Assembly: GCA_039026795.1 (NCBI GenBank)
Contig: JBCCLQ010000001.1
Coordinates: 1 to 52,053, forward strand
From: Pseudomonadota bacterium
GTDB lineage: Bacteria; Pseudomonadota; Alphaproteobacteria; Micavibrionales; Micavibrionaceae
Reading direction: 5' to 3'
Length of the DNA stretch: 52,053 nucleotides
The position numbers and the translations under genes are program-made. How positions within the stretch are numbered: the stretch's first letter is position 1; every line of letters begins with the position of its first letter. Shown here piece by piece: positions 51 through 49,718 of this stretch. A model generated the notes under the pieces. It saw only the letters and a program-made list of their open reading frames with translations, did not search any database and had not been told where the DNA came from.

Positions 51-536
51 ATGATTAGAAAATTTTTAAAACCGCTCTTTAATAAAGAAGAAGGGCGAAA
101 GGAAATACTCGACTATATGCGCGAGCTAGAAGTTGACGTGCTGGCACGTACGATTTTCGGTGAAGCACGTAATGAAGGTGCGGTCGGCATGGAAGCCGTC
201 GCTTGTGTTGTTTTAAATCGTGTCAAAACCGCACAGAAAATAGGTGGTTACTGGTGGGGAAACAACATCATTCAGGTGTGCCAAAAGGCTTACCAATTTA
301 GCTGTTGGAATAAAGATGATCCGAATTTGAAACGCATCCAAGAAGTGACGGAAAGCGACATTCATTTTCAAACCTGTTTGAGGATCGCTCGTCGTGCAGT
401 GATTGGTGCACTGCGCGACACAACAAACGGCGCAGATCATTACCATGCGGATTATGTTGATCCGCATTGGGCGCAAGGGCAAAAGCCGGTCACGGTTATC
501 GGACGTCATATTTTTTATCGTCTCATTGAAGTTTAA
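51..536 (+). CDS. Cell wall hydrolase, SleB/Hydrolase_2 family (candidate endolysin)
   Basis: 161-aa ORF. The FGEARNEG...MEAVACVVLNRV and GADHYHA segments are typical of SleB-type cell wall hydrolases. No signal peptide. Confidence 0.8.
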   Translation: MIRKFLKPLFNKEEGRKEILDYMRELEVDVLARTIFGEARNEGAVGMEAVACVVLNRVKTAQKIGGYWWGNNIIQVCQKAYQFSCWNKDDPNLKRIQEVTESDIHFQTCLRIARRAVIGALRDTTNGADHYHADYVDPHWAQGQKPVTVIGRHIFYRLIEV

Positions 537-1030: not shown

Positions 1031-1884
1031 ACCTTATGCTCGCGATAAATCATATAAAGACCTGCTCCGATAATAAGAATAAGGCCGATATATGTTGTTT
1101 TCACAGGGATATCGCCAAACAGAAAATATCCGAATAAAACACCCCAGATGATTTGTGTGTATTGAAACGGTGCGACAATCGCCATTTCTTTGATCTTTGC
1201 CATGCTATACGTGGTCATTAACAAACCACCAATGACAAAGCTGCCATATAAAGCAAACAGTCCAATATCAAACAAAGCGACCGGCGTGAAATTGGCCAAC
1301 CCTGCCGGAGCGTTTAATACAGCAATAAATAAAGGCGGATAAACCCCGTATAGCGGTAAATATTCATCTCGTCCGATTTTTCGAATGACGATAGCTGAAA
1401 ATGAAATGCATAAGACAGCCAAAGCTCCGTATATATACCCAATATTTAGGTTAGAGAATTCGGGGCCTGCCAAAACAATCACACCTACAAAGCCGATTCC
1501 AACCGCAAGCCATCGATGCCAACCGACATGCTCTTTTAAAAAAACTGCGATTAATATCAGAAGCAGAAATGGTGCTGTAAAAGTAATCCCGTAAAAATCC
1601 GCTAATGGAATGCGACTAATGGAATTCATCACAAAAAATGATGTTCCAAACACCAAAAATCCACGAATTAAATGCCATTTTAATGCCGGGGATAAAAAAC
1701 CTCTCCAGCCTTTTTGTATCACAATCCAGCTTGCTAGAAACGTTGCTGCGATAGAGCTGGCAATCATCAAGATTTGAGATATGCCATAATCTTGAGATAA
1801 GTATTTGCCCAGAACATCAGCACCTGCATAACTGCTCCACCCTAAAATATTTAGTAGTATCAATGGAAAAACTGAGGGTTGCAT
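1003..1884 (-). CDS. EamA/DMT-family transporter
   Basis: 293 aa with about 10 hydrophobic helices in two EamA-like halves. Confidence 0.8.
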   Translation of the reverse strand: MQPSVFPLILLNILGWSSYAGADVLGKYLSQDYGISQILMIASSIAATFLASWIVIQKGWRGFLSPALKWHLIRGFLVFGTSFFVMNSISRIPLADFYGITFTAPFLLLILIAVFLKEHVGWHRWLAVGIGFVGVIVLAGPEFSNLNIGYIYGALAVLCISFSAIVIRKIGRDEYLPLYGVYPPLFIAVLNAPAGLANFTPVALFDIGLFALYGSFVIGGLLMTTYSMAKIKEMAIVAPFQYTQIIWGVLFGYFLFGDIPVKTTYIGLILIIGAGLYMIYREHKVYRSAQKSR

Positions 1885-1960
1885 AACTGTTTCGGTTTTC
1901 TTTTCTGAATAGGTCGTGTAATGATTTGATGTCTATTATTGAAATGAGCATGTTATTTGT

Positions 1961-3241
1961 ATGTCTAGCAACGATCAAGATCATCCAGCATCAGAATCCA
2001 TAAAAGCTTTTTCAAAAGCTGTCCGAGTGCCGGTGGCGGTCGCCAGAGATTTTTTCAAAATGGAAGCATCTGGAGGCATCGTTCTCGTCATAGCATCCGT
2101 TTTAGCGCTCATTGTAGCCAACTCTCCTTTATATTCTTCGTATAACTATTTTTTGAACGAAGTTCACTTTCATATTGGTTTGACCAATATTGCGGGCAAC
2201 AACAAATATGACTTTGATAAATCAATTCTGCACTGGATCAATGATGGCCTTATGGCGATCTTCTTTTTCTTGATTGGTCTTGAAATTAAAAAAGAAGTGA
2301 TGGCTGGAGAGTTATCGTCGCGTGAGCGCGCATTACTTCCGGCTATTGCTGCTGTTGGTGGTATGGCCGTTCCCGCGCTGTTTTACTGGTATCTAAACAT
2401 TGGTGATCCTGAAGCAATGCGTGGCTGGGCTATTCCGGCTGCTACAGATATCGCGTTTGCGCTTGGGGTTTTGAGTTTGTTGGGTAACCGTGTACCAACC
2501 TCCCTTAAGGCTTTGCTCTTGGGTATAGCCGTTATTGACGATATGGGCGCGGTTCTAATTATTGCGATTTTCTTTTCTAAAGGAATATCGCTTGGTGCGC
2601 TCTATTTTGCCGCAGCATGTTTTGTTGTCTTGGCGATCATGAATAAACGCGGGGTTAGTAGTATTGCGCCTTACATCCTTGTGACAATTTTAATGTGGGC
2701 CGGATTTCTGGAATCCGGTGTTCACGCTACCATAGCGGGCGTTGTTGCAGCTATGTTTATCCCCCTTAAATGCTCTAAAGATCCATCAAAATCACCTGTA
2801 AAAGATCTGGAACACGGGCTTCATCCTTGGGTGGCTTTTCTGGTTTTGCCAATCTTTGGGTTTGCGAACGCCGGTGTTCCATTTGCCGGTCTTACTATAG
2901 AAGACCTTTTCAATCCGATTACCTTTGGTATTGCCGGCGGTTTGTTTATTGGTAAGCAAATTGGAGTTTTTGGTCTGATTTTCCTTACAATTAAAATGGG
3001 ATTGTCACCAAAACCGGATGGAGCAAATTGGTATCAGCTATACGCAGTATCTTTGCTCTGTGGTATCGGGTTTACCATGTCACTCTTTATTGGTGGTCTT
3101 GCATTCGACTCTTACGAAACACAGGCGTATGTCAGGCTTGGCGTATTAACAGGCTCAATTGCATCTGCTATCTTAGCCTATACTATTCTTCGATATGGCC
3201 CAACCAATCAGGTTATTGAGGCCAAACCGCAAAAGGCTTAA
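1961..3241 (+). CDS. nhaA: Na+/H+ antiporter NhaA
   Basis: The WAIPAATDIAFALGVL and AVIDDMGAV motifs are characteristic of NhaA. 426 aa, polytopic. Confidence 0.95.
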   Translation: MSSNDQDHPASESIKAFSKAVRVPVAVARDFFKMEASGGIVLVIASVLALIVANSPLYSSYNYFLNEVHFHIGLTNIAGNNKYDFDKSILHWINDGLMAIFFFLIGLEIKKEVMAGELSSRERALLPAIAAVGGMAVPALFYWYLNIGDPEAMRGWAIPAATDIAFALGVLSLLGNRVPTSLKALLLGIAVIDDMGAVLIIAIFFSKGISLGALYFAAACFVVLAIMNKRGVSSIAPYILVTILMWAGFLESGVHATIAGVVAAMFIPLKCSKDPSKSPVKDLEHGLHPWVAFLVLPIFGFANAGVPFAGLTIEDLFNPITFGIAGGLFIGKQIGVFGLIFLTIKMGLSPKPDGANWYQLYAVSLLCGIGFTMSLFIGGLAFDSYETQAYVRLGVLTGSIASAILAYTILRYGPTNQVIEAKPQKA

Positions 3242-3244
3242 ATC

Positions 3245-4498
3245 ATGACCAAAACCGCGCCTATTAAAATAACGGGCTCTATTGTTGATATGACAGGGGA
3301 CGGCGTATGGCCACATATGGCGCAGGAAATCCGTGATAACCTGATTGCATCAATCTTTGATATTGATTGGAAGGTGCATGATATTTCACTACAAGCACGC
3401 GATAAAACTAATGACGATGCCTTACAGGATGCATTAAATGATCTGAAAGAGCATAAAGCGGCAGTCAAAGGGCCCACTATCACACCCACAAAAGATGAAA
3501 CCGAAAAGTTTGGTTTATCCAAACAATGGGGCTCGCCGAACGGTATTATTCGCAGGTCTATTAACGGCGCAGTCATTTTGCGCAACACGATTGAAATTGA
3601 CGGCATTCAGAAATTTGCGCCGCTCATGCATGACGTGACAATTGCCCGTCAGGCTGTGGGCGGCATTTACGGAGCGCCCAATGCGGCTATTCCCGGAAAA
3701 GGAAAAGTGAAAGTTATCTACGAAGGGGACGATGGAGCGAACGAAACCTTGGTAGAGGGACGTGAGGTTGAAAACGGCACTTTGATGCTGACGACTGAAA
3801 CCGATCATTCTATTCGCGATTATGCGCATGCCGTATTCGGGCAAGCCTTAACGCTTGGTAAGTCTATTATCTTTGCCGGTAAGGACACGATCAGCCCAAT
3901 TTATGACGGGCGCTTCATGGAGATTTTCACTGAAGTATTCAAGGCAGACTTCGAAACTAAATTCCGCGCTGCAAATCTTACCTTTAGCGATAAGGTCGAA
4001 CTGATTGACGCGGTTGTTTCTAAAATCCCTCAAGGGAAAATGAACAACATGATCATCGCGCTTAAAAACTATGATGGTGATGTTGTGTCCGATCAGGTTG
4101 CAGGAGAACATAAATCTCTGGGTTTAATGGACTCAACACTTGTCAGCGCCGATGGTATTTTATTGGCCGATCCACCGCATGGCACAGCACCGGATCTTGA
4201 ACCGGCTTGGCACGAAAAGAAAATCCTGTTGGCCAATCCGACCGCTCACATTTTTGCTTATGCTGAGGCAATACGTCACAAAGCAGAGCTCAACGGACAA
4301 CAAGATGCGGTCATTGCAGCTAAGCGATTAAAGCAAGCGGTCGTGATCACAATAGAAGAGGGGCTAAAATCCGGAAAACTGACTGGTGATCTTGCACCAA
4401 ACGCCGGGAATTCTATCAGTGGTCAGCAATTTATTGCGAATGTTCGCGAAACCTTCGAACGTCTGCCTATTGAGCGTCGTAAAGCACAAGGTGAATAA
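3245..4498 (+). CDS. Divergent isocitrate dehydrogenase (NADP, eukaryote-like dimeric type) homolog
   Basis: Length (417 aa) and the blocks GPTITP, WGSPNGIIRR, ARQAVGGIY and KNYDGDVVSD resemble IDH1/2-type enzymes, but several signature blocks differ (see findings). The start lies 3 nt after the nhaA stop. Confidence 0.7.
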   Translation: MTKTAPIKITGSIVDMTGDGVWPHMAQEIRDNLIASIFDIDWKVHDISLQARDKTNDDALQDALNDLKEHKAAVKGPTITPTKDETEKFGLSKQWGSPNGIIRRSINGAVILRNTIEIDGIQKFAPLMHDVTIARQAVGGIYGAPNAAIPGKGKVKVIYEGDDGANETLVEGREVENGTLMLTTETDHSIRDYAHAVFGQALTLGKSIIFAGKDTISPIYDGRFMEIFTEVFKADFETKFRAANLTFSDKVELIDAVVSKIPQGKMNNMIIALKNYDGDVVSDQVAGEHKSLGLMDSTLVSADGILLADPPHGTAPDLEPAWHEKKILLANPTAHIFAYAEAIRHKAELNGQQDAVIAAKRLKQAVVITIEEGLKSGKLTGDLAPNAGNSISGQQFIANVRETFERLPIERRKAQGE

Positions 4499-6985: not shown

Positions 6986-7672
6986 TTGGTGTTCGGATTA
7001 GAACTTGTGATGGCAAGCTGGCTAACTATGGCGTCATGGCAAGATGACATCAAGTGCGAACCACAACGTAAACCTCGGGTAACGGTTTTACCTTCGAAAA
7101 GCCCGTTGAAGTTTAACTTTCAAAAAAGCCGGGATGAATTGCAGCAGCTTGAGATTGATACAATCTCGCCGTATGGCCCGGGCGTTGAAACACACTTAAA
7201 TGGTGCGATGAGCGGGGCTATCCAACTGGAAACAAAAGTCAGCTATTTAAGCAACACGTATTCGCACCCCAATTATCCGGGAGAGGAGCAATCCTGTATT
7301 TTTGTGGATCAAATTCAGGTCAATATTCATTTTGATCCGACCATTTATATTGTCCGCGAATACCCGAAAGGCACGTGTGAACACGAAGCCGTTATGGAGC
7401 ATGAAAAAAAGCATTTGAAGGTTAATCAAATTGTCATCAATAAATACACTGAACGCATTTCAAAAACTTTGAGCTATGCAATGAATAAGTATGGCACGTC
7501 TTATGGTCCGTTCTTTGTTGCGGAAACGCCCGGTGTTTATGAACGTTTGAAAGAATATTATGTCGGGATCGTCAAAGACGAAGAAAAACGCATGTATGCG
7601 GAACTTCTAAAACTCAATCAGGATATCGATACAATTGAGGAATACGAGCGTGTGCGCAACGCTTGTTTATAG
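6986..7672 (+). CDS. Hypothetical protein with metalloprotease-like His/Glu motif (possibly DUF922-like)
   Basis: 228-aa ORF containing CEHEAVMEHEKKH. The start is uncertain (TTG 6986, ATG 7010 or ATG 7028). A hairpin terminator follows. Confidence 0.5.
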   Translation: MVFGLELVMASWLTMASWQDDIKCEPQRKPRVTVLPSKSPLKFNFQKSRDELQQLEIDTISPYGPGVETHLNGAMSGAIQLETKVSYLSNTYSHPNYPGEEQSCIFVDQIQVNIHFDPTIYIVREYPKGTCEHEAVMEHEKKHLKVNQIVINKYTERISKTLSYAMNKYGTSYGPFFVAETPGVYERLKEYYVGIVKDEEKRMYAELLKLNQDIDTIEEYERVRNACL

Positions 7673-7928: not shown

Positions 7929-10583
7929 ATGAGAATGACTCGCACCGGCCTTGATACTCTTCAAACACGTAAAACCCTAACTGTTGATGGAAAAGATTAT
8001 GATTATTTCAGCCTGAAAGAAGCTGAAAAACAGCTCGGAGACCTTTCCAAGATGCCTTTTACACTGAAAGTCTTGCTGGAAAACCTTTTGCGCTATGAAG
8101 ATTGTCGATCCGTTGAGGTTGATGATATGAAGGCTTTGGTGGCGCGTGAGAATAAAGAAATTGCTTATCGTCCGGCCCGCGTTCTGATGCAGGATTTCAC
8201 CGGTGTACCGGCCGTTGTTGATTTGGCAGCCATGCGTGAAGCAATGAAAGCTCTGGGTGGAGATGCACAAAAAATTAACCCATTGAGTGCTGTTGATTTG
8301 GTGATTGATCACTCTGTCATGGTTGATGAATTCGGAACGCCTCGTGCGTTTCAGGTGAATGTGGAACGTGAATTTGAACGCAATGGTGAACGCTATGCGT
8401 TTTTGCGTTGGGGGCAAGACGCATTTGATAATTTCCGTGTTGTGCCGCCAGGCACTGGTATTTGTCACCAGGTGAATTTGGAGTATCTCGGGCAGACCGT
8501 TTGGGTTGAAAAAGATCAGGACGGAAAAAATGTAGCTTATCCAGATACATTAGTGGGAACAGACTCTCACACAACAATGGTGAATGGACTTGCTATTTTG
8601 GGCTGGGGTGTCGGTGGTATTGAGGCTGAAGCTGCGATGCTTGGGCAGCCTATTTCTATGCTTATTCCTGAAGTCATTGGCTTTAAATTGACGGGAGCGC
8701 TCAAGGAAGGCGCAACCGCAACAGACCTCGTTTTGACCGTGACTGAAATGCTCCGTGAAAAAGGTGTGGTTGGAAAGTTTGTTGAATTCTACGGCGATGG
8801 TTTAGACCACATGACCTTGCCGGATCGTGCGACTCTCGGGAACATGTCACCGGAGTTTGGTTCGACATGTGCGTTCTTCCCGATTGATGATGAAGCGCTG
8901 CGTTATTTGCGCTTCACAGGTCGGGAAGAACACCGCGTGAAACTGGTTGAAGCCTATGCGAAAGAGCAGGGCATGTGGCGTGAAAGCGGTCACGAACCCG
9001 AATTCAATGACACACTTCATCTGGATATGAGTACGGTTGAACCTGCGATTGCGGGACCAAAACGCCCGCAAGATAAAATCTTATTGTCCAATGCCGTATC
9101 CGCTTTTGATGCTTTGAAAAACGATGGTACGAAGCAGGACGTGGAAGGCGAAGACTATGATCTGGAAGATGGTGATGTTGTTATCGCTGCGATTACATCT
9201 TGTACCAATACATCCAACCCATCTGTCATGGTCGGTGCGGGACTGCTGGCTCGTAATGCATTGGCAAAGGGTTTGGAAGTGAAGCCATGGGTTAAAACAT
9301 CCTTGGCGCCGGGTTCGCAAGTCGTCACAGATTATTTGGAAAAGGCAGGGCTACAAGATGATCTGGATGCGCTTGGTTTTAACTTGGTTGGTTACGGGTG
9401 CACGACGTGTATTGGTAACTCCGGGCCATTACCTGACAATATTGCGAAGGCTGTTGAAGATGGTGATTTAACCGTCTGTGGCGTTTTGTCTGGTAACCGA
9501 AATTTTGAAGGGCGTATTAATCCGCACGTTCGTGCCAACTATCTGGCGTCTCCGCCATTGGTCGTTGCGTATGCTTTGGCCGGTTCCATGGAAGTTGATT
9601 TATACAATGATCCGTTAGGTCAGGATAAAGATGGCAATGACGTCTTCATGAAAGATATCTGGCCGACGAATAAAGAAATTCAGGATACAGTTGAGCAATG
9701 TTTAACGCCTGAGATGTTCCAATCACGTTATGCTGATGTATTCAAAGGCACGGAAGAATGGCAGGAAATTTGTAGTGCAGATAGTGGCGAGACGTATGAC
9801 TGGGTACCGGGTTCAACGTATGTGAAAAATCCACCGTATTTTGAAGGGATGAGCGCCGAACCCGGCGATATCAATGATGTGAAAGGTGCGCATTGCTTGG
9901 CGCTACTCGGTGATAGTGTCACAACAGACCACGTTTCTCCGGCTGGTTCAATCGCTAAAGATTCTCCTGCTGGTGAATATCTAAAATCCCATCAGGTTAG
10001 TGTTGCTGATTTCAACTCTTATGGCTCCCGTCGCGGTAATCACGAAGTCATGATGCGTGGAACATTCGGTAACATTCGTATTCGAAACGAAATGGTACCG
10101 GACACAGAAGGTGGTTTTACCAAGCATGTTCCGAGCGGCGATGAGCTTTCAATCTATGATGCTGCAATGAAATATCAGAAAGAGGCCACACCACTGGTAG
10201 TCATTGCCGGTAAAGAATACGGCACCGGATCATCTCGTGACTGGGCCGCGAAAGGGACACGATTGCTGGGTGTGAAAGCCGTAATTGCTGAAAGCTATGA
10301 ACGTATTCACCGCTCCAACTTGGTTGGTATGGGCGTATTACCATTGCAGTTTAAAGATGGCGACAGTCGTAAGTCTTTAAACCTAACAGGCGATGAAGTT
10401 TTTGATCTCACAGGTATTGAAGGCAATTTGAGCCCACGTCAGGATGTTGAAATGACAATTCATCGTGCAGACGGATCAGCAGATAAGGTACAACTCCTCT
10501 GCCGCATCGATACACTCGATGAGATTGAATATTACAAACATGGTGGAATTTTGCATTACGTGTTGAGAAGCTTGGCGGCTTAA
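7929..10583 (+). CDS. acnA: Aconitate hydratase A
   Basis: 884 aa with canonical AcnA/IRP blocks: [64 protein letters not shown]. Confidence 0.95.
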
Positions 10584-11524
10584 TCGACCCATTCACCCTG
10601 ATCCTGTTCACCGGACTCAATCATTTCCTGAATTTGGGGTGCTAGGATGGTATGAGCGACTTCTTCGGCATCTATGATGGCTTTTGAGAAGTTTGGGCGT
10701 TCAGGGCGGTATGTCACATCGTATAGCATCTCATATTTATTAATCGCACGATTAAGTGAGCCGACACGTTCAACGGTACGTTTGCCTTTACGGTCATCAT
10801 CTGAATATTGTTCGATAAGCTTATAGGCTTTTTTCTTGTTGTACATACCAGCCTGAAAAGCGAGTTGAATACCTTCTAAAAATGCTGCCGATACAGTCAA
10901 AGATTGCGATACTCTGACGGATGACCCGTTCGGCTTTTTCTTTGCTGTAAAGTTAAATGTTGTTGTGCGGTTAGCCGATCTCAAGATGACGCCGCATTTT
11001 GCTTCATCCGATTTAAAAGCAACAACCAATGCAATGTTTGAGTCATATTCAATGTGAACATCTTTGCCTGCCTTCTTAAAAGCCTCTTCGGCAAATTCGA
11101 TTGATTCTTTATACTTACCGTTATTGGCTGCATCGCATTGTTCAATAATATCTAAAAATGCATGGTGCTCGCCTTCTTCAAACACGATGCGACCTTTGTG
11201 ATAGACCACACCCCAGATATCAGGATTCCAGTCACGCTCATATCCTTTGATGACTTCTTGCCATAAATCCTGCCAATAAAATTTACGTCGTCTCACCATA
11301 ATTGGACCGGAATCTTGAAATTCCTTGACGATCATGGCTGCGAAACGCACACAGCTATGCATATTTTGGGCGCGCACGACAAAACTTTCACGTTCACCTG
11401 TGCGCTCGGAATACATTGCAACAACCATACGATTGCTAAGCGCAACTACGTCATCTTCATTTTCCAGCTTTTGTGTGGCTGAAATTACAAATTTTTCGCG
11501 AACAAGTGATGAGTTGAATTCCAT
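10580..11524 (-). CDS. Hypothetical protein (no family recognised)
   Basis: 314-aa ORF with coding-like composition and an acidic C-terminus. Its stop overlaps the acnA stop (TTAA). Confidence 0.55.
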
Positions 11525-11970: not shown

Positions 11971-12600
11971 TTATTCGGCTCGGTTTTCTGCGAAGAGAGC
12001 GTCGATATCGTCCTGAGATTGGGCTTTCATTTTGCCCTCTGAAACTTCTTCAACGGCTTTGTTCTTGTCGGTTTCAACGTTAATGCCTAAGCGATTTAAA
12101 GTGCCGCTCAAACGCTCTTCAATCATTTGCAGGTTTTCAAGCGTCTTGCGTATACGTTGCCCTGTTAAATCCTGGAAAGTACAGGCCAACAGAATGTTTT
12201 GAACATCACTTCTGATATTTTCTAAGAGCTCTTCGCGTTTGTCAGGATTGTCCCAGTCTTTTTGCTCACCCACAAGCTCTGCTATTCTGTCGGCGGCATC
12301 CAGAATTTTATTGGCTGCTTCTTCTGTATCGCCAATTACAGCTTCCAGTTCAACACCAGTATTTACCTGTGTTTCTCCCTCGCCTTGATAGGATATCGCA
12401 GACATAATATCCAGTATTTCACTAAAGCGTCGCGCAATGCCTTCTTCGGCCATATCGACTTGCTGGGATGTGGCATTGATTTCCATGGAAATTTCATCAA
12501 AACGGCGGGCAATGAATTGTTCCATAAGAGACAATTTGTCATTAATGCCGAAGACTGAGTCTTCCAAATCACCGACAACGTTTTCGGGTTCTTTACTCAC
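11971..12600 (-). CDS. cheZ: CheZ-like CheY-P phosphatase
   Basis: The FQDLTGQRIRK motif matches the CheZ active-site QDxTGQ, within a long helical acidic protein. Preferred start is GTG 12600, with GGAGA 7 nt upstream. The track ORF extends to 12663. Confidence 0.65.
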   Translation of the reverse strand: MSKEPENVVGDLEDSVFGINDKLSLMEQFIARRFDEISMEINATSQQVDMAEEGIARRFSEILDIMSAISYQGEGETQVNTGVELEAVIGDTEEAANKILDAADRIAELVGEQKDWDNPDKREELLENIRSDVQNILLACTFQDLTGQRIRKTLENLQMIEERLSGTLNRLGINVETDKNKAVEEVSEGKMKAQSQDDIDALFAENRAE

Positions 12601-12724
12601 TATTATATCTCCAAATAATCTATGGTAGTAAACGAATTTCAACATGGAATGTCCAGAAGACAATCCACAGATTAAGGCTTAATCCCCTTAATCTTCTGTT
12701 AAAAACCTTAAAACATAAGATAGC

Positions 12725-16882: not shown

Positions 16883-17620
16883 CTAAGGTTTCCAAAATTC
16901 TAAACGCAAGCCTAAATAACCGTTCAGCAAGCTTGGTGCATTTTGTCCTGTTAAAGCTTTCGACAGTTCACCGGATGGAATATATCTAACCCCTGCCTCA
17001 ATGTTGGAATGACCCAAATCAAAGCCCACGCCAGCGCTGCTGAAAACATATAATAGACGACCACCAATAAGCGCTTCATCACGAATAACACCCTCGTAGC
17101 CATCAACCCAAGCCGCACCAGCGCCTACGCTGGCATAAATATTACTTAATAGATCACGATTGACGTGTCCGGCAACATAGGGGCCTTCAGAGCGCAGGAA
17201 ATGACTGTTTTCAAATGTGGTATATCCAGCTTCAGCGCCAAATGACCAAGGGCTATCTGGAGATGGCGTGTATTCTGCACCAAGACCTAAAGTCATAATA
17301 TGGTTAACTTCATTATAGCCACCTTTTGGAGCTCCGATGCTATTTGTGTGGTAAACACCCCCAGAGTAGGTGGCGGAGACATAAGGTGACCAATTGTCGT
17401 GTGTTTGTTGTTTCGCTCCGCCTTGTGCAGAACGATGATTGTCGGCATTGCTAGCATTCCCATAACGATCGACCAACATTCTTTGCAGAGAATCGGTTAT
17501 AATGGGGGCGGATGTGGTTATTGTTCCAGACCCCGCAGAGGCAGAAAAAGGATATAAAGCTGAAAACGCAACTGTAGTTACGGCAGCAAATACCCGTCGA
17601 ATCGACTGTGATATATTCAT
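16883..17620 (-). CDS. Outer-membrane beta-barrel protein (OmpA_membrane/porin-like, 8-10 strands)
   Basis: Signal peptide ending SASA|GS, alternating aromatic/Gly-rich strands, and a C-terminal ...GLRLEFWKP. GC is lower than in lepA. Confidence 0.65.
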   Translation of the reverse strand: MNISQSIRRVFAAVTTVAFSALYPFSASAGSGTITTSAPIITDSLQRMLVDRYGNASNADNHRSAQGGAKQQTHDNWSPYVSATYSGGVYHTNSIGAPKGGYNEVNHIMTLGLGAEYTPSPDSPWSFGAEAGYTTFENSHFLRSEGPYVAGHVNRDLLSNIYASVGAGAAWVDGYEGVIRDEALIGGRLLYVFSSAGVGFDLGHSNIEAGVRYIPSGELSKALTGQNAPSLLNGYLGLRLEFWKP

Positions 17621-19748: not shown

Positions 19749-22178
19749 CTAAGCGTCCAGAGTTTGTAGAGAAGCGTTTCTTGCGCTCGCTATAGCGCGC
19801 TCAACAGCAGCGTCTGCATCTGCAACTGCTTCAGCTGTCTCTCCATCTGGCATTGATAGAGCAGCCGGGTCAGCAGATGCAACAAATGAAGCATTCATGA
19901 CTGAAGATTCTACAGCTTCTGGTTCCGTCGAAGCACTTATAAAATCAGGTGATACCCTGCTTGCACTCACCGGGAGTAGTGAGGTACCTAAGCTGCTTGG
20001 TGCCCCTGCAGGAATGCCTGAATCGCTTGTGCCCGTCCCAGATATTCCTTTTGTACTCGTATTCACAGCAGCGATGGAACCGGGCGTTCCATATTTTTGA
20101 ACGTCTTGTACAATGCGGTTAAAATCATCGCGAACAGCACTGGTTACAGACGCATAGACTTGAGCATATGTTTTTGGATTGCTGCGATCCGGCTGGCCAT
20201 TACTTCCTCTATGGTAATATAAAGTTGGGTTCGCCGCGGCCGGTTTTCGCTCATATTTTGCCGCTGATCTGTTTGCCCATTTTGGGTCCGACGCGCGGCT
20301 GGCCAATCGATTACTACCTGAGAAATAGTATGCATATTGTCTTTTTAAATCAGTCCTTGATCCGGATTCCTTCATGTATTTTGCCATCATGTAGGGGGCA
20401 ACCAACGGATTTTGACGCCATTCGGAATTCGGATTAAAGCCAACGCCGTATTTCCCTAGAGCAGCACGTGCTTCTGCGCCATAGGTTTCTTCTAAATATC
20501 CTTTGGTACCATCAATGATTTGGCCGAAATTACGCGCTAATCGCGTTGCCGATGACGCACGATGCGTGTTGTAATTACCAAAATTTGATTCTTGGCTGAC
20601 CATCGCCACAATGTTCTGAATTGGTACGCCGCTTTCCAAGTGTGCAATTAAAATACCATCTGCAAGTCTTTGGTCTACGCCTGTTGCGGCAAAGCGTGCA
20701 AGATAAGCCTCATGCACTTGCTGAGCATCCAGGCTTGCAACACGTGGGTTTAAATCAATTGCAGAGTCACGAACCTGCATTGTGTTTTGAAATACTCTGC
20801 TCTCAGTTTGCTCTGGCCTGTAGGAACGATCAACTTCCATAAGTCCCGCACCAAATAGGTTTCCAATTTTGGCAACACCACCAACCATGGCCGGTACACC
20901 AAGTTGCACAGCTGTTACCAATGCCTGCATCATTTCCGGTAACCAAGGCATCATTTCCAATAGCTCAGGTGGAAACTCAAGGTTTGCGACTGTTTCATGA
21001 AGGTTGTCAAAAATTCCATCCCATTGATCACCGATGCCGTTGACTATAGCGAGCCAGTTTGCAGGATCGCTGGCAATCTCACTTCTCATTGTGTTGGTGG
21101 CGGAATTAAATATAGCGGCTACTACCGCAGGCGCTCCCGAATTAGGGTCTGTTGCAGCTGCGGATAAAGCTGTAAAATCTAAATCCCCTGTATTGGGATC
21201 GTAAAAGTTTGAAATATAACTTTCGGCACTTGCAAGATCCAGATCTGGGTTGCCGAGAACATCTTCTATTATTCCAGCTTTGACCTTACCCATTAAAGCA
21301 TCTAATTCTGCGCCACCCAGATTAATACCTCTCTCAGCCAGTGCGTCTGTAAAGACATTCGGGGGCAATGGTTGTGAAATCAGGGTTGATAAAACGCTTT
21401 GAGTTGAAGGATCCTGCGCTTCGCTCAATGATAATGTTGCCAAGCTGGCCGGATTGCTTTTGAATGCAGACAAGAAAGCATCCCGAGATGCCGGATCTGC
21501 TTCAAGATTCGAAAAGAAGGCTTCTTGTGTAGAAGCATCGCCCAAAAGACCTTCTGTTGAGCGCATTGCATCAAAAAGAGCATCACCTTCCAAAGCTCCA
21601 AAGCGCTCATTTAATTCAGCCGCGGTTCCGTCAACCAGTGCAGTTCTGAAATCATCCGATGTAAAATCATCCGGATCTTGTGCCAGAGTTGTGATGGCGC
21701 GCGTTATAGATTCTTGCCCGAATTCATGTTCAGACAAGTGCGTAAACATTGTTTGGTATCTTGCTGCCGTTTCAGGGTCAGTTGACAGATTGCTAAAATC
21801 CAGCTGGTCAACACCAACATTGGTTGCAAATCCATGAAGTGCCGTACGGAAACCCGGGTCCTGATCCATATTGGTCAAAAATGTATTGAGTTCCCCCATC
21901 TGCACATCGGCTGCTGCATCACCTGTTAAGCTTTCAAGCTTTAATTCCGTAGCGATAGATAGAGCTTCAAATGTTGCATCTGGATCATTTACCTGTTGTG
22001 CAGCTTCTGTGAAAGCTTGCATGAGTGTTCCACGCAGATCGAAGTCGGGTTGAGAGGCATTAGCCGTTATGTCAGGGATTTTATTGACAATAATGTCGCC
22101 AACAGCATTGTTACCCAAACGGCCTAAAACTGAACTATTATCAGTGGTAAACTTTAATATATCTGCTGCGGTTGCCAT
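19749..22178 (-). CDS. Large acidic Cys-free protein with degenerate DPxxxF repeats, a central hydrophobic segment and a weak SLT-like motif
   Basis: 809-aa uninterrupted ORF with GAGGGA about 10 nt upstream of the ATG. It contains VSQESNFGN...FGQ and YAYYFSGSN, reminiscent of lytic transglycosylase motifs, and a Ser/Thr/Ala-rich tail. Confidence 0.7.
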   Translation of the reverse strand: MATAADILKFTTDNSSVLGRLGNNAVGDIIVNKIPDITANASQPDFDLRGTLMQAFTEAAQQVNDPDATFEALSIATELKLESLTGDAAADVQMGELNTFLTNMDQDPGFRTALHGFATNVGVDQLDFSNLSTDPETAARYQTMFTHLSEHEFGQESITRAITTLAQDPDDFTSDDFRTALVDGTAAELNERFGALEGDALFDAMRSTEGLLGDASTQEAFFSNLEADPASRDAFLSAFKSNPASLATLSLSEAQDPSTQSVLSTLISQPLPPNVFTDALAERGINLGGAELDALMGKVKAGIIEDVLGNPDLDLASAESYISNFYDPNTGDLDFTALSAAATDPNSGAPAVVAAIFNSATNTMRSEIASDPANWLAIVNGIGDQWDGIFDNLHETVANLEFPPELLEMMPWLPEMMQALVTAVQLGVPAMVGGVAKIGNLFGAGLMEVDRSYRPEQTESRVFQNTMQVRDSAIDLNPRVASLDAQQVHEAYLARFAATGVDQRLADGILIAHLESGVPIQNIVAMVSQESNFGNYNTHRASSATRLARNFGQIIDGTKGYLEETYGAEARAALGKYGVGFNPNSEWRQNPLVAPYMMAKYMKESGSRTDLKRQYAYYFSGSNRLASRASDPKWANRSAAKYERKPAAANPTLYYHRGSNGQPDRSNPKTYAQVYASVTSAVRDDFNRIVQDVQKYGTPGSIAAVNTSTKGISGTGTSDSGIPAGAPSSLGTSLLPVSASRVSPDFISASTEPEAVESSVMNASFVASADPAALSMPDGETAEAVADADAAVERAIASARNASLQTLDA

Positions 22179-22228
22179 TTTCGGGGTTTCCCTCTACCTG
22201 TTTTGTCGTTTTTTATTTTACTTGCCCT

Positions 22229-22258
22229 ATTCTATGAAAAACCAAGGGCGCAGTGCAA
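22229..22258 (-). promoter_or_regulatory. Sigma70-like promoter TTGCAC-N18-TAGAAT for the 809-aa gene
   Basis: Reverse complement of 22229-22258. It lies about 50 nt upstream of the start codon. Confidence 0.4.
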
Positions 22259-22450
22259 ATTTGAGGGCTTTTTGACTTATTTTTTACAATAAAAACAATG
22301 GTTTAAATGTTTTTTATATCTTTGTGGCCCCGTAAAATTTGATTCTTCTTTTCCGCATTCAATATACTGTAATCATAATATTATTGAAGGCGTGTAAAAT
22401 CCAATAAACGCCAAATTTATGAATTAAAACAATAACTTGACTAATCAATT

Positions 22451-22480
22451 TTGCATTGGGTTTAGCAAATACCGTATTAT
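22451..22480 (+). promoter_or_regulatory. Sigma70-like promoter TTGCAT-N18-TATTAT for the 22543 gene pair
   Basis: Located 62 nt upstream of the ATG, within a 364-bp AT-rich divergent intergenic region. Confidence 0.4.
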
Positions 22481-22542
22481 AGGGGCAAGATTATAGAAAA
22501 AACGAAAACGGATACGAAAAACAGGATTTAGAGGTAAGTACA

Positions 22543-23514
22543 ATGGCAAGCGATGCAGATAGTCCAGAAGTAAATACTACGCACCCTCAAGCTCCAGGAG
22601 GCGGAAATCCTACAGGAGGTAACAGTCTTCCAGATAATATAGATCTTGATACGCCTGAAGGTAGAGCGGCTTTAGCAAGGACACCTGAGGGTAGGCATAT
22701 ATTAAGTGAGGCCCGTTTAGACGCAGAAAGTGCTGCCAGAGTTCGTGATGCAGATGCAAATGCTGGTGCAAGAACAGCAGAAGGAAAAGCAGCCACAACC
22801 GTTGCTAATGCACAAGCAGATGCAGCCAGAAATGGTTCTGGAGGTAGGGGCAAAGGCATTATGAGGGCTGCCAGAAGTGTTTTTACATGGGCATTAGTTG
22901 GTGCTGCTGCTGACGTTGTGATGAGTGAGAATACACTCGGTGGTACTCCAATTCCTGGTACTTCTATCACTGTGCCAGGTGCAAACAGGCCGTCAGTTTT
23001 ATTAGGTGAACCGGATAGAAATCCTGAAGGGTCACCTACACCTATTCAGGGAGAAAATCCAGGTGCGCTGGATGATGCTGGCAGCTTGGCAAGAGATAGG
23101 CTGGCTGCTTCAGCAGAGTTAACCCAAAGACAAGCTGAGTACGCTCGCTTAGATCCGGGAAGACTTCCAGAATTCGGGCAAAATGATGTCACTGTTATCG
23201 CTGGCGGAATACGTGGAACACTGGATTTGCCTGAGTATTCAGATATCAGTCCAGAGGCGAAACAGTGCATGCTTGGTGCGTTTAGTGCTGCAGCACAAAT
23301 AGCAAATGCAGAACATCCGGTGGCAACTCAAAGAAGTGAATTCTTAGATGCTTTTGGAAGGTATGCGAGTGGCGAGGATGATCAATATGGTTGGGCAAAA
23401 TGTGTTAAAGATCACCCTGAGTTAGAAAGTGTGGCAGGGCAAGTTGAACAGGATTTTCTTACTAGAGGTTCAGGTATGCAGGCAACGATATCAAGAGCAC
23501 CCGGTTGGAAATAA
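22543..23514 (+). CDS. Hypothetical protein (disordered Gly/Pro/Ala-rich N-terminus, one hydrophobic segment)
   Basis: 323-aa ORF with GAGGT about 7 nt upstream. Arg codons are strongly biased to AGA/AGG, unlike the neighbouring core genes. Confidence 0.6.
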   Translation: MASDADSPEVNTTHPQAPGGGNPTGGNSLPDNIDLDTPEGRAALARTPEGRHILSEARLDAESAARVRDADANAGARTAEGKAATTVANAQADAARNGSGGRGKGIMRAARSVFTWALVGAAADVVMSENTLGGTPIPGTSITVPGANRPSVLLGEPDRNPEGSPTPIQGENPGALDDAGSLARDRLAASAELTQRQAEYARLDPGRLPEFGQNDVTVIAGGIRGTLDLPEYSDISPEAKQCMLGAFSAAAQIANAEHPVATQRSEFLDAFGRYASGEDDQYGWAKCVKDHPELESVAGQVEQDFLTRGSGMQATISRAPGWK

Positions 23515-23532: not shown

Positions 23533-24342
23533 ATGGTTTCAGATTTTAATCTTAATAGTGCAGCAAATTGGCTAAGCGGAGATCCTACTCAAGGTGAAGG
23601 GCAAGGTGTTTCTCTGGAGAGTTTGACTGATCAGTTTCGTGGAGATACGTCAGCAATCAGGGATGTATTACGCTCGCGTTTAAACGCAGTTATCACAAAT
23701 TTAGAAGTACTTGGTAAGGCAGGTATTGAACCTTCGCAAGCACAACTGCAATCATTTGCACAGATATTGACGCAATATGTTAGCTTGGATGCGCAGTTGA
23801 CAATGAATGTGCCAAGACACCAGCAAGATGCTTTCCATCAATACGAACAAATGTTGTTGAATGGTGATGCAAACTTACAGCTCAAATCTGTTGAAGGTAT
23901 TGCTAGTGCTGATAGTTGGTGGGGTTGGGCCGGACAAACTCTTATAAAAATTATAGATGGTCTGGAAAGTCTAGGAGTAGAAAGAGAATCTCTAGCTATG
24001 TTTGAAAATATGGCTAACCGCTGGGTTGAGAGTGCGCAAGCAAGTCCAGAAGACGGAAACGGAAAATATATTCAAGCAGATGAAGGTCGCATAATAACAG
24101 GGCGTCGTCCTGATTTTGATGCAGCTGCAGGCATATCAGATAGTGCTGAATTATCGCTAGATCCCATGGTAGGTCAAAAAGTGCTTGAGTTTACACAGCT
24201 AACGCAATCGCTGATGACTGAATTAGACGAGCTAGCTAGAATACATGAGTTACAAGATTGGCAAAGTAGTGTTACCACTACTGATCCGAGTGCTGGAAGT
24301 GCACCAAGGCCATCGGCAAGAGACTTAGTTCCAGTTCGATAA
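23533..24342 (+). CDS. Hypothetical helical protein
   Basis: 269-aa ORF starting 18 nt after the previous stop, with AAGGAGAAGG upstream. No Cys and no recognisable family. Confidence 0.6.
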   Translation: MVSDFNLNSAANWLSGDPTQGEGQGVSLESLTDQFRGDTSAIRDVLRSRLNAVITNLEVLGKAGIEPSQAQLQSFAQILTQYVSLDAQLTMNVPRHQQDAFHQYEQMLLNGDANLQLKSVEGIASADSWWGWAGQTLIKIIDGLESLGVERESLAMFENMANRWVESAQASPEDGNGKYIQADEGRIITGRRPDFDAAAGISDSAELSLDPMVGQKVLEFTQLTQSLMTELDELARIHELQDWQSSVTTTDPSAGSAPRPSARDLVPVR

Positions 24343-24379: not shown

Positions 24380-24414
24380 AAAGCCTAATACCTATCTATG
24401 TGGTATTAGGCTTT
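24380..24414. terminator. Bidirectional hairpin terminator between convergent orphan genes
   Basis: 13-bp stem AAAGCCTAATACC / GGTATTAGGCTTT with a 9-nt loop. On the minus strand it is followed by a T-rich tract. The stop codon of the 249-aa ORF lies at the stem-loop junction. Confidence 0.65.
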
Positions 24415-25141
24415 CTGCTGTTGGTCCTGTTGGAGCAGTGTTTTCTGATATTCCCAAATAATCCTGTATTAACGCTTTATCTTCTGCATAAGGCTCCGTC
24501 CCTGTAATATGATGTGCCCAAAGAGCCCTACCTGAAGCTTGGATTATAGGACTATCATATATTTCATAAAAACCGGCGACTGATGCAGATGCGCTGGAAC
24601 TTGCGGTTAATACAGGTGTGCCAAGCAAAGATGGTATGCCATGTGTGGCCGCTGCCCTAGCAGCTAGCGGAGCGCTCGCCACCATGGGAGCCAATGTTCC
24701 AGCCGTGTGTAAACAATTATCCAGATCATCAATGGCTTGCGGCATTTGACCGTCCACTGCGATAACAAGGCCTTCATAGCCATCTGTGAGTGATGTGTGA
24801 ATATGTTCCGATCCTAAAAATGGATTATCTGTCATTGGGCCGATATCAACCTCTACGCCCGGAATAACATTGACAGCATTTAGTATGCGGGGTGCATGGT
24901 TAACGCCGTCCACAACATAACCGGGTAGAGAAGCCAGCCCAATGAGACCGCGATTTACGCCATCGGCAAAAAAATTAAAGCTGTTCCACATACGGCCGGG
25001 GCTAATATCCCCTTCGATATTGTTAATACACGGCACTTCATGTCCAAAAACCGTAATAGGTTGATGATAGGCACCATTGGCCGTAGCATCGGAAAATCCG
25101 TTATTTACGTTTGTACCTGTTTGTATGCCATCCTGAGGCAT
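24392..25141 (-). CDS. Hypothetical protein
   Basis: 249-aa ORF with its own promoter-like element. No family recognised. Confidence 0.55.
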   Translation of the reverse strand: MPQDGIQTGTNVNNGFSDATANGAYHQPITVFGHEVPCINNIEGDISPGRMWNSFNFFADGVNRGLIGLASLPGYVVDGVNHAPRILNAVNVIPGVEVDIGPMTDNPFLGSEHIHTSLTDGYEGLVIAVDGQMPQAIDDLDNCLHTAGTLAPMVASAPLAARAAATHGIPSLLGTPVLTASSSASASVAGFYEIYDSPIIQASGRALWAHHITGTEPYAEDKALIQDYLGISENTAPTGPTAESLIPHR

Positions 25142-27814: not shown

Positions 27815-28897
27815 TTATATTCCAGTCACTGCTTTACGAACCCATGGTCCGATCTGATTTAAGGGTAAAACTTCGGTACATAGTCCTGCATTGGCAACAG
27901 CGCCCGGCATGCCCCAAACAACACTCGTTTCTTCGTCCTGTGCGATTAATCGACCACCTTTTTTAATTAAGGTTTTTGAACTATCAAGGCCGTCATGTCC
28001 CATACCTGTCAGAATGACACCCAGAACCTTATTGCCGAAGATATCGATAGCGCTTTCAAACATTGGGTCGACTGCCGGTTTGCAGAAATTGATCGGCGGA
28101 CTGTCATCAATATGAGCTACCAAAGCGCCATCTGCATTTTTTTTCACAATCATGTGATAGCCACCCGGTGCGACATAGAGGATACCATTTTCAATCACCA
28201 TGTCTTGTTCGGCTTCGATGGACGTCACGCCTGTATTGTTGCTGATATGTTGCGCCAGAATTTTTGTAAAAGTCGCCGGCATATGTTGCGTTAAAATCAT
28301 CGGGATATCCAAATCCTTGAAATGGGAAACTACCTCAAACAGAGCTTGTGGGCCTCCTGTTGAGCTGCCGATCGCAATGATAGATGGTTTACCTGTATAG
28401 GCAGCTACATTGGTGTTCAGTTTTATACTGGATGTTGATTTTTCCGGTTCTGTTGTCTCTGTTTTGGATGGCCCCAAGCCGCGGATGATTCCGACCAAGC
28501 TTTGTTGAAAATCGCCACCCGGCTTGATGTCCTCAGGCTTGGTTGGTTTACCGATACATTCAGTTGCACCTATGCGCAAAGCTTCTAACGTAATAGACGC
28601 ATTGCGCACAGTGAGCGTTGAACACATTACGATTTTAGAATTGGGTGCTTTTTCCAGCAATTGTGGCAAGGCTGTCATGCCATCCATAACGGGCATTTCA
28701 ACATCCAACAAGATGATATCCGGTGAGAGTGTTTCGACAGCCTTCAAGGCCTGTTCGCCATCCGTTACGGATTTGATGATTTCAAAATCAGGTTCGGATG
28801 ATAAAACGCGTGACAGCATGCCTCTGACAACTGCTGAGTCATCAACAAGCATGATTTTAATTGTAGAGTCTGTTTGATCTGAAGGGGGAGGTGTCAT
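27815..28897 (-). CDS. cheB: Protein-glutamate methylesterase/glutaminase (REC plus CheB_methylest domains)
   Basis: IKIMLVDDSAVVR...DVEMPVMDG forms the REC domain; IAIGSSTGGPQAL and TGMGHDG belong to the catalytic domain. Start set at MTPPPSD (28897), just after the cheY stop. Confidence 0.9.
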   Translation of the reverse strand: MTPPPSDQTDSTIKIMLVDDSAVVRGMLSRVLSSEPDFEIIKSVTDGEQALKAVETLSPDIILLDVEMPVMDGMTALPQLLEKAPNSKIVMCSTLTVRNASITLEALRIGATECIGKPTKPEDIKPGGDFQQSLVGIIRGLGPSKTETTEPEKSTSSIKLNTNVAAYTGKPSIIAIGSSTGGPQALFEVVSHFKDLDIPMILTQHMPATFTKILAQHISNNTGVTSIEAEQDMVIENGILYVAPGGYHMIVKKNADGALVAHIDDSPPINFCKPAVDPMFESAIDIFGNKVLGVILTGMGHDGLDSSKTLIKKGGRLIAQDEETSVVWGMPGAVANAGLCTEVLPLNQIGPWVRKAVTGI

Positions 28898-28904
28898 ATA
28901 GCCC

Positions 28905-29285
28905 TTATGTGCTCGCGTTTTCCATGAGGCCGATTTGAATAAATTTAGATTGTATAATATCGCTATCAAACGGTTTCATAATATATTCGTTTGCGCCTGC
29001 CATCATGGCTTCCTGAATTTTGCTCATGTCGTTTTCAGTTGTGCAGAAAATAACTTTCGGGAAACCGCCGTTATCCATAGCACGTAATTTTACGAGAAAT
29101 TCTATACCGCTCATGATCGGCATATTCCAGTCCAGCAAAATCGCTTCCGGCATGGAAGACTCACAAGCTTCGTAGGCTTTTTGTCCGTCTTCTGCTTCGG
29201 CACAGGTGAAGCCTAAATCTTCGACTATGCGGCGTGCGACTTTTCGAACAACACGACTATCATCGACAACAAGACATGTTTTCAT
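28905..29285 (-). CDS. cheY: CheY-like single-domain response regulator
   Basis: 126 aa with VVDDS, LLDWNMP and KP motifs, located inside the che operon. Confidence 0.85.
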   Translation of the reverse strand: MKTCLVVDDSRVVRKVARRIVEDLGFTCAEAEDGQKAYEACESSMPEAILLDWNMPIMSGIEFLVKLRAMDNGGFPKVIFCTTENDMSKIQEAMMAGANEYIMKPFDSDIIQSKFIQIGLMENAST

Positions 29286-49340: not shown

Positions 49341-49718
49341 TCATAGCTTGAACCTCTTAATCCCATCTTTAATTAAAGGGACATTAAAGTTGATAAGAAG
49401 GCCTACCTCTTTTTTAGATAGTTTCATGTAAGTTAAGATCTGTGCTTCATGAATGGGGATTAACGTATCAACACTTTTTAATTCAACGACGACGGTATCC
49501 TCTACCAGTAGATCAATTCTAAAGGCGTTATGAATCACTAAATCCTTGTATTGAACTGTAATTGGAAATTGTCTTTCAGTTTTTAGTCCTCGTTTTTCTA
49601 AATCATGAAATAGGCAGTCCTCGTAAACTTTTTCGTAAAGCCCCGGTCCCATAACCCTATGGATTTGAAGAGAAGCATCCACAATTTCGCCTGTTATATC
49701 ATTTAATTTTTTAGCCAT
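49341..49718 (-). CDS. GxxExxY family protein (PD-(D/E)XK-like)
   Basis: GPGLYEKVYEDCL supplies the GxxExxY motif, alongside DLLVED..VVELK and a size of 125 aa. Confidence 0.8.
   Translation of the reverse strand: MAKKLNDITGEIVDASLQIHRVMGPGLYEKVYEDCLFHDLEKRGLKTERQFPITVQYKDLVIHNAFRIDLLVEDTVVVELKSVDTLIPIHEAQILTYMKLSKKEVGLLINFNVPLIKDGIKRFKL

Follow-up and report, generated by a model that had tools for sequence, protein, structure and literature searches.

A predicted phage-type lytic transglycosylase domain on an orphan protein module in a rapidly diverging chromosomal island of an alphaproteobacterium

Introduction

Mutagenesis of gp144, the endolysin of phage phiKZ and a lytic transglycosylase (LT), has defined a principal catalytic site, Glu115/Tyr197, and a secondary one, Glu178/Tyr147 (PMC5406664), and gp181 of the same phage is a virion-associated lysin (PMC5380687). 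A peptidoglycan-degrading domain of phage origin is also found in pesticin, a cysteine-free protein that joins a delivery part to a killing domain derived from a phage lysozyme and that must unfold to cross the membrane (PMC3390615). Here we describe a gene, from an uncultured marine alphaproteobacterium, whose product invites comparison with both. It lies at positions 19749-22178 on the minus strand of contig JBCCLQ010000001.1 (assembly GCA_039026795.1, Micavibrionaceae), of which the first 52,053 nucleotides, referred to as the window, were analyzed. The gene is the last (D) of a four-gene island (A, B, C, D) located between purH and lepA, and it encodes an acidic protein of 809 residues, the target of this study. 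The C-terminal domain of the target is very probably a GH23 lytic transglycosylase of the phiKZ gp144/gp181 type, a subfamily known from jumbo phages that would now extend into bacterial chromosomes, and its N-terminal part belongs to an orphan family.

The C-terminal transglycosylase domain

The homology to gp144 is contained in a C-terminal globular domain, residues 481-700 (20079-20738; all features of the gene given below lie on its minus strand). When the single sequence was searched against the PDB, residues 516-673 matched phiKZ gp144 with an E value of 0.008, SQES of the query lying over SIES and E530 over Glu115. A family profile was then built from seven sequences, the target and six further proteins, the only others with the LT domain among 1.84 billion representatives searched exhaustively with HMMER. 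This profile matched gp144 (3BKH/9XPS) with an E value of 1.3e-20, profile positions 66-224 corresponding to residues 98-251 of the chain. The homologous segment of the target, residues 513-671 (20166-20642), covers the whole catalytic domain. The initial annotation had noted a loose resemblance to SLT-type muramidases in the strings VSQESNFGN, ARNFGQ and YAYYFSGSN; the three strings are indeed in the protein, and the profile match bears the resemblance out.

All four active-site residues of gp144 have equivalents in the target. E530 (codon 20589-20591) corresponds to the catalytic Glu115 and Y615 (20334-20336) to its partner Tyr197, while E604 (20367-20369) and Y566 (20481-20483) take the places of Glu178 and Tyr147 at the secondary site. 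The putative catalytic glutamate is invariant in the ten sequences compared, two jumbo-phage proteins among them, as are S531, Q553, Y615 and N650. At the secondary site Y566 is kept in nine of the ten and E604 in only five, and this site is not a family-wide feature. The residues E530, Q553 and Y615 are separated by 23 and 62 positions, against 19 and 63 for E115, Q134 and Y197 of gp144. The motif spacing that had first been regarded as atypical is that of the gp144 subfamily, and the new fold that had also been suggested is therefore unlikely. From the residues retained, the domain is probably catalytically competent.

Structure prediction points the same way. The AlphaFold model of the C-terminal domain has a predicted template modelling score of 0.77 and a predicted local distance difference test (pLDDT) of about 80-95, and it suggests a lysozyme-like, GH23 fold. 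Its top Foldseek matches in the PDB are all GH23 enzymes, namely 3W6E (a GH23 chitinase), MltE, MltC, MltF and the phi6 lysin, with probabilities up to 1.0 but with E values of 0.01 or higher and template modelling (TM) scores of 0.35-0.54. This evidence from the modelled fold agrees with that from the sequence, but is weaker. The Pfam SLT model (PF01464) scores the target below its gathering threshold, hmmscan having reported no family at E ≤ 1; the subfamily lies outside the reach of the curated model. No PG_binding_1 domain was found in the target by Pfam scan.

The open reading frame (ORF) is complete and ends in a TAG stop codon. No upstream extension of it is possible, and the closest ortholog, P0002, shares its start, MAT…. 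The protein had been described as devoid of cysteine, and the count is in fact zero in 809 residues, which has a probability of about 8e-4 given the 0.88% of cysteine in 38 non-island proteins of the window. The net charge is -48 over residues 1-410 and +7 over residues 446-700. As also reported at the outset, a Ser/Thr/Ala-rich tail follows the domain: residues 701-780 (19839-20078) are rich in Ser, Thr, Ala, Gly and Pro and predicted to be disordered, and a similar tail follows the LT domain in giant proteins of jumbo phages. In the AlphaFold model the protein terminates in an acidic amphipathic helix, residues 781-809 (19752-19838), which is a candidate for a C-terminal export signal. The target lacks a signal peptide, a lipobox, a twin-arginine motif and an RTX (GGxGxD) motif.

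The N-terminal module and its C-terminal partners

Residues 1-410 (20949-22178) form the N-terminal module (N-module), with family homology extending to about residue 462. AlphaFold predicts this part to be all-helical in the full-length model, whose mean pLDDT is 72.5. The best conserved core, residues 196-261 (21396-21593), reads G-D-x-L-F ... T-E-G-L-x-G-D ... Q-x-x-F-F ... N-P ... L-S-L. The family consists of five cluster representatives among the 1.84 billion (P0001, P0002, P0003, P0009 and P0011). A profile of the module gave only non-significant matches in the PDB, to designed helical repeats and protein A repeats, a structural search gave no credible match, and a pattern scan found no relative in JGI metagenome contigs or in 2.9 million viral contigs. 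One member, P0003, has an additional N-terminal extension of about 125 residues (1-125) that is absent from the others.

The initial annotation had read nine spaced acidic DP motifs in this part as degenerate repeats. The motifs are present and enriched, with nine Asp-Pro dipeptides in the first 420 residues against 2.0 ± 1.3 in 10,000 shuffled sequences. In five of the nine a predicted helix starts at the proline, where chance alone would give 0.54 such cases, and in the model the motifs are Asp-Pro helix N-caps and not a functional acidic repeat. The repeat-detection searches of the region were essentially negative. A hidden Markov model (HMM) of the core, of about 65 residues, found a clear second copy in P0009 (35 bits; copies at residues 51-106 and 250-320), a marginal one in P0002 (9.2 bits) and only 0.5 bits in the target, the best of 1000 shuffled sequences reaching 7.2 bits. 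Profile-profile self-comparison detected one weak internal duplication, residues 60-135 against 195-262 (E 6e-4, probability 30%). A tandem-repeat array was rejected on the core HMM and the helix-cap positions.

Four C-terminal states were observed on this one module. In the target it is followed by the LT domain; in P0002 and P0003 by only a low-complexity tail of about 45-175 residues; and in P0009 and P0011 by two unrelated C-termini of about 200-250 residues, that of P0011 containing two DxNxDGxxD calcium-binding-like motifs. Comparison of these alternative C-termini and of the other island proteins with the PDB and NCBIfam gave nothing. The LT domain is truly absent from P0002, because this protein was recovered on four independent contigs with lepA directly downstream. 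The fusion of N-module and LT domain was seen in one genome only, from a single metagenome run, the sister lineages lacking the domain. It is likely, then, that the target is a modular carrier with a swappable C-terminus.

The purH-lepA island

The three partners of the target gene are likewise orphans. Gene C (w323, 323 residues, 22543-23514, plus strand) encodes an acidic protein with a weak internal hydrophobic segment after basic residues; gene B (w269, 269 residues, 23533-24342, plus strand) encodes an acidic, cysteine-free protein; and gene A (w249, 249 residues, 24392-25141, minus strand) encodes an acidic protein with a conserved MPQDG start. Scans of the target and these three neighbours with Pfam, NCBIfam and PHROGs produced zero matches. 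All island proteins are acidic and poor in cysteine and lack a signal peptide.

The purH-[A,B,C,D]-lepA slot is occupied in the window and in three other lineages, here called L001 (from a Tara metagenome), L005 (the metagenome-assembled genome (MAG) "Alphaproteobacteria bacterium 3_bin.2") and L009. A scan of the genome collection with a three-sequence alignment found one MAG. LepA and PurH of the window are 84-95% and 79-91% identical to those of the other loci, against 24-47% for the D proteins; gene A is recognisable just by a short motif, and genes B and C are unrecognisable. Gene A is homologous to L1_329 and L5_310 (E 5e-27), and L1_280 and L5_270 are the positional counterparts of gene C. 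The GC content at third codon positions (GC3) is 0.26-0.39 in the island genes and 0.42-0.62 in the flanking ones (lepA 0.62, purH 0.48, argH 0.62). Within the target gene there is no GC or GC3 step between the parts encoding the N-module and the LT domain, and a recent acquisition of the latter was rejected on this ground. The flanks of the island contain no convincing repeats, no tRNAs and no Rfam elements, which speaks against a mobile element.

Genes D and C are divergently transcribed, and the 364-bp region between them contains the promoter-like motif TTTGCA-N19-TAnnATAGGG exactly twice, with 0 occurrences expected by chance. One copy, TTTGCA-N19-TAGAATAGGG (22225-22259, minus strand), faces the target gene and the other, TTTGCA-N19-TATTATAGGG (22450-22484, plus strand), faces its neighbour w323. 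No further copy exists in the window, even at two mismatches. The motif is kept upstream of the D genes in L001 (about 9925-9960), L005 (6771-6805 and 6999-7033) and L009 (6545-6579) in spite of their diverged surroundings. Since the motif is shared and conserved, the island appears to be a co-regulated unit. Regulation through CtrA boxes was considered and discarded: TTAA-N7-TTAA occurs four times in the window, a count that is not significant, and never in the island. Generic sigma-70 and terminator scans were uninformative. The carrier and its three partners constitute genomic dark matter with a fixed slot, a promoter signature of its own and far faster evolution than the neighbouring genes.

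Two island proteins of L009, L9_817 (1081-3534, A-type) and P0011 (6694-8937, D-type), open with MP(Q)D... and then have LDTIVV or LDTVVI among their first 21 residues. The pattern LDT[IV]V[IV] is similar to the TonB box, as known from TonB-dependent receptors, group-B colicins and pesticin; of the 38 window proteins encoded outside the island, none carries it N-terminally. Judged by sequence resemblance, these starts hint at import in some members of the family.

Proposed function

The LT domain can have only peptidoglycan as its substrate, yet the protein carries no signal of the Sec, Tat or lipoprotein kind and no anchor of transmembrane grade. We infer from this that the acidic, cysteine-free polypeptide is probably exported as a whole, in unfolded form, along a non-Sec route whose genes lie elsewhere. 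The reading we favour, tentatively, is that of a carrier-plus-payload protein that leaves its producer in this way and cleaves the peptidoglycan of another cell. The N-module would be the delivery or targeting part, and the LT domain would cut the glycan strands in the wall of a competitor or prey, by analogy with pesticin. Type I secretion through the disordered tail and the terminal amphipathic helix would be the likeliest candidate route, and the composition of the protein is compatible with it: acidic, cysteine-free, disordered at residues 701-780 and with an acidic helix at residues 781-808. Export would also agree with the lack of signal peptides in those relatives that have just the LT domain and are encoded in orphan-gene islands of Micavibrio-like genomes, Micavibrio itself depending on type I and type II secretion (PMC3189940). 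A secreted or injected peptidoglycan-targeting factor had been proposed in the initial annotation; this was a reasonable idea, and the modular and hypervariable context now strengthens it, but the analysis turned up neither an export route nor a target nor an immunity gene.

Several observations weigh against a carrier-plus-payload protein. Two hallmarks of type I secretion are missing, as the target has no RTX repeats and no adjacent transporter, and the only ABC ATPase in the window is of the Opp/Dpp type; nor does the 52-kb window hold secretion-system, lysis or phage genes. The island contains no periplasmic (signal-peptide-bearing) immunity gene, and the number of its genes is four both with and without an LT domain in D. 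The pattern [DE]T[ILMV][VTI][VI] has no match in the first 30 residues of the target, which show only a weak GDIIVN. The position of the island is constant across species, as would be expected of a vertically inherited function of the cell no less than of a toxin locus. Two of the orthologs have essentially no payload, so the N-module must do something by itself. Besides, the alignments behind all the structural inference are shallow, with 7-11 sequences. Micavibrio aeruginosavorus, an obligate epibiotic predator, possesses type I and type II secretion, no type III or type IV secretion system and no arginine biosynthesis (PMC3189940), unlike the organism of the window, which has full arginine biosynthesis. 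An equation of this organism with Micavibrio was rejected, as the window has arg genes and Opp-type permeases or peptide transporters that M. aeruginosavorus lacks.

If the target is nevertheless a carrier-plus-payload protein, it would be a tractable case of marine bacteria recruiting wall-cutting enzymes of phages as weapons, and a source of peptidoglycan-cleaving domains and delivery modules. A broader interpretation, which we consider possible but speculative, is that the purH-lepA island is an undescribed polymorphic, antibacterial, bacteriocin-like locus of uncultured marine alphaproteobacteria with a dedicated promoter type. Its carrier would take interchangeable killing domains, in this case one from a jumbo phage, some versions would be imported through TonB as in L009, and the partner proteins would act in release, chaperoning or unconventional self-protection.

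Another possibility, to which we would give no more than modest credence, is that the products of the four island genes build or maintain a structure associated with the producer's envelope and that the LT domain locally opens the producer's own peptidoglycan to make space for it. Such enzymes are fused to their partners in some lineages and separate in others, as FlgJ fusions on the one hand and SltF and VirB1-type enzymes on the other illustrate. A structural role of this kind would agree with the stable chromosomal position across species beside a LepA that is 84-95% identical, with divergent units co-regulated by one promoter motif, with the clean absence of the LT domain from lineages sister to the only one that has it, and with the lack of an immunity gene in the island. 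The chemotaxis genes that flank the island on both sides (they are not flagellar structural genes) would also be in keeping with it, and so would the C-type proteins, in which a basic stretch precedes a hydrophobic segment in a manner compatible with membrane anchoring. However, the extreme divergence and low GC3 are atypical for core machinery, the variable and unrelated C-termini are hard to fit with a fixed structural role, and neither a signal nor a segment of transmembrane grade would bring the LT domain into the periplasm. Searches of Pfam, NCBIfam and the PDB disclosed no similarity to flagellar, pilus or secretion components. If the island does build a cell structure, this would be an unrecognised envelope component.

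Relatives of the catalytic domain

Among 2.9 million viral contigs, relatives of the LT domain were found only in two, both from jumbo phages (276 and 283 kb). The proteins concerned are giants of 1989 and 2189 residues that carry the domain near the C-terminus, with long helical regions, Gly-rich hydrophobic segments and, after the domain, a tail rich in Ser, Thr, Ala and Pro, a layout shared with gp181. The order of parts in the C-terminal half of the target is the same. Giant phage proteins are also the only significant structural matches of the full-length model (E 5e-6 to 4e-4), and tape-measure, internal-core and tail-lysin proteins come next; the TM-scores of the alignments are low (about 0.2).

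These similarities raise the question of whether the C-terminal half, from the hydrophobic segment to the Ser/Thr-rich tail, descends from a jumbo-phage protein, either a virion lysin of the gp181 kind or a tape measure, and now serves as an ejection or tape-measure component of some phage-like particle with genes elsewhere, or as an endolysin without signal that a holin-like partner releases to lyse the producer. The virion association of gp181 and the endolysin-like architecture of signal-less relatives that combine PG_binding and LT domains are consistent with a domesticated phage part of this sort. We nevertheless consider it unlikely, as the N-module has no relative in the viral contigs, no phage structural, integrase or lysis genes occur in the window or in the related loci, neither flanking repeats nor a tRNA accompany the island, and the same four-gene slot is kept across species. 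Moreover, at a Foldseek TM-score of about 0.2 the significance of the structural matches probably comes from the LT domain and generic helices.

In a word-indexed homolog search the C-terminal domain alone recovered nothing and the combined alignment only P0001 and P0002. Four relatives, P0005-P0008, carry one to three PG_binding_1 repeats ahead of the LT domain, which is the architecture of gp144. The relatives that share only the LT domain with the target lack signal peptides, and P0004, P0005, P0007, P0016 and P0019 all adjoin mdh. Where the contig permits, they are seen to belong to small islands that separate sucC/sucD from mdh in Micavibrio-like genomes, consist of unannotated genes and have common flanking synteny (loci L011, L015, L017, L018 and L006). 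One of these relatives, HEU4838252.1 from a Micavibrio sp. MAG, is annotated just as a "peptidoglycan-binding domain-containing protein". Genes of the sucC-mdh and purH-lepA islands show no homology by BLAST, the LT domain aside, and the promoter motif of the latter is missing from the former. The gp144-type domain thus recurs in small orphan-gene islands, including those of Micavibrio-like bacteria, which are candidate predators, and it is missed by Pfam, NCBIfam and PHROG models.

Some further features of the sucC/sucD-mdh islands were recorded. A second SLT-like gene is present in L015 and L018, and the island of L018 also has an Acyl_transf_3+SGNH gene of OatA-like architecture. Because O-acetylation of peptidoglycan would block transglycosylases, this gene could possibly confer self-protection. 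The C-termini of P0006, P0008, P0019 and P0007 are alike, with the motifs …SGW(T/A)P..NDF[VC] and …NWKPDSFGIA and with acidic and then hydrophobic residues at the extreme end; we take them to recall some type I secretion signals.

The hydrophobic segment

The hydrophobic stretch that the initial annotation had placed between the two halves of the protein does exist, as a Gly-rich, moderately hydrophobic segment at residues 415-446 (20841-20936). The membrane anchor that it seemed to imply was not upheld. The Kyte-Doolittle maximum is 1.55, and an additive sum on the Hessa scale gives +7.0 kcal/mol, outside the range of -2.9 to +1.2 kcal/mol for reference transmembrane helices; the comparison is a simple sum. 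Q, P, K and N occur in the segment, and E, D and K in its counterparts in P0002 and P0003. A transmembrane anchor was rejected on the Hessa sum.

A bitopic inner-membrane protein, with a cytoplasmic N-module, the segment as signal-anchor and the LT domain in the periplasm of the producer, is accordingly improbable. The location of the stretch directly before the enzyme domain and the difficulty of translocating so acidic an N-module would suit such a topology, and AlphaFold draws one long helix at residues 413-445. But this helix is of low confidence (pLDDT 31-60), its polar and charged residues and the Hessa sum are unfavourable, and the flanking charges, acidic before the segment and three Arg after it, oppose the positive-inside rule for an N-in orientation. 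Least probable of all is an accidental recent fusion, decaying or confined to peptidoglycan binding, since the reading frame is intact over 809 codons, the catalytic and structural signature residues are all retained and GC3 is uniform across both parts, so that the LT-coding part is not a fresh insertion, even though the fusion is carried by one genome from a single metagenome run and the sister lineages lack the domain. None of these alternatives was preferred to the carrier-plus-payload protein.

Next to the segment, an imperfect 21-nt tandem duplication (20927-20968, 76% identity) encodes the doubled sequence LEMMPW/LPEMMQ; it is the source of a 7-residue insertion relative to P0002 and P0003, right before the hydrophobic residues.

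Other features of the window

The remainder of the window is alphaproteobacterial core chromosome, with genes for MipZ, ChpT, cheAWYBR, CheZ, aconitase and folD and an arginine biosynthesis cluster. The CheZ-family phosphatase gene (11971-12663, minus strand; Pfam E 8e-9) lies about 7 kb from cheAWYBR and is conserved in L001 and L005. The CheB ORF (27815-28969, with a TTG start) overlaps the cheY ORF (28905-29285) by 65 nt, both on the minus strand, and the real CheB start is probably further downstream. A PD-(D/E)XK nuclease gene (PDDEXK_3, E 3e-42; 49341-49718, minus strand) is located inside the arginine-biosynthesis cluster. A Hydrolase_2 (SleB-like) cell-wall hydrolase gene (51-536, plus strand) is unrelated to the target. 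Three ORFs have no Pfam family (10580-11524 and 16883-17620, minus strand; 6986-7672, plus strand), and the position of the 314-residue ORF is conserved in L001 and L005.

Comparison with known systems

The target shares with phiKZ gp144 and gp181 (3BKH, 3BKV, 9XPS) a catalytic homology over the whole length of the domain and an equal spacing of the ES, GxxQ and Y-x-x-[HY]-F motifs. As in the target, helical and Gly-rich hydrophobic regions precede the domain and a Ser/Thr-rich tail follows it in the gp181-like proteins of the two jumbo phages. However, the identity to the phage LT domains is just about 27-30%, and the Pfam SLT model is blind to the target. Unlike gp144, the target is without PG_binding_1 and outside a phage genome, and it bears an N-module without viral relative; unlike the gene of a gp181-type virion lysin, its gene is not among phage structural genes, the surroundings in the window and the related loci consisting of housekeeping genes only.

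The proteins of the sucC-mdh islands that combine PG_binding_1 and LT domains belong to the same subfamily, with 33-38% identity to the target over the aligned domain and 44-48% in the best stretch. They too are signal-less and nearly cysteine-free, and are encoded by the last gene of a small unannotated island between housekeeping genes. They differ in that peptidoglycan-binding repeats replace the N-module, in the slot they occupy and in the absence of the island promoter motif. Concerning the enzymes that serve cellular machines, FlgJ/SltF, VirB1, EtgA and PleA use a similar GH23-type chemistry, and in some lineages the enzyme is fused to a structural protein. Yet these have Sec signals or are type III substrates and are encoded within the cluster of their machine. 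The target has neither the rod-binding domain of FlgJ (Pfam, NCBIfam) nor a flagellar gene context, and it lacks the signal peptide, lipobox or transmembrane anchor of Mlt and Slt enzymes.

Proteins of the type of pesticin (from Yersinia pestis), colicins and pyocins resemble the target in placing an N-terminal delivery part before a C-terminal, phage-derived domain that degrades peptidoglycan. The muramidase of pesticin is, however, of the T4-lysozyme type and not GH23, and its delivery part has no sequence similarity or detectable fold similarity to that of the target. In pesticin, moreover, the TonB box is proven, and pim, a periplasmic immunity gene, lies next to the toxin gene; the target has neither. 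On the other hand, neither protein has a signal peptide or a cysteine, the C-termini of the target family are swappable as in modular bacteriocins, and the more distant island proteins of L009 begin with TonB-box-like sequences. What is new here is a phage-type transglycosylase on a novel carrier within a novel island.

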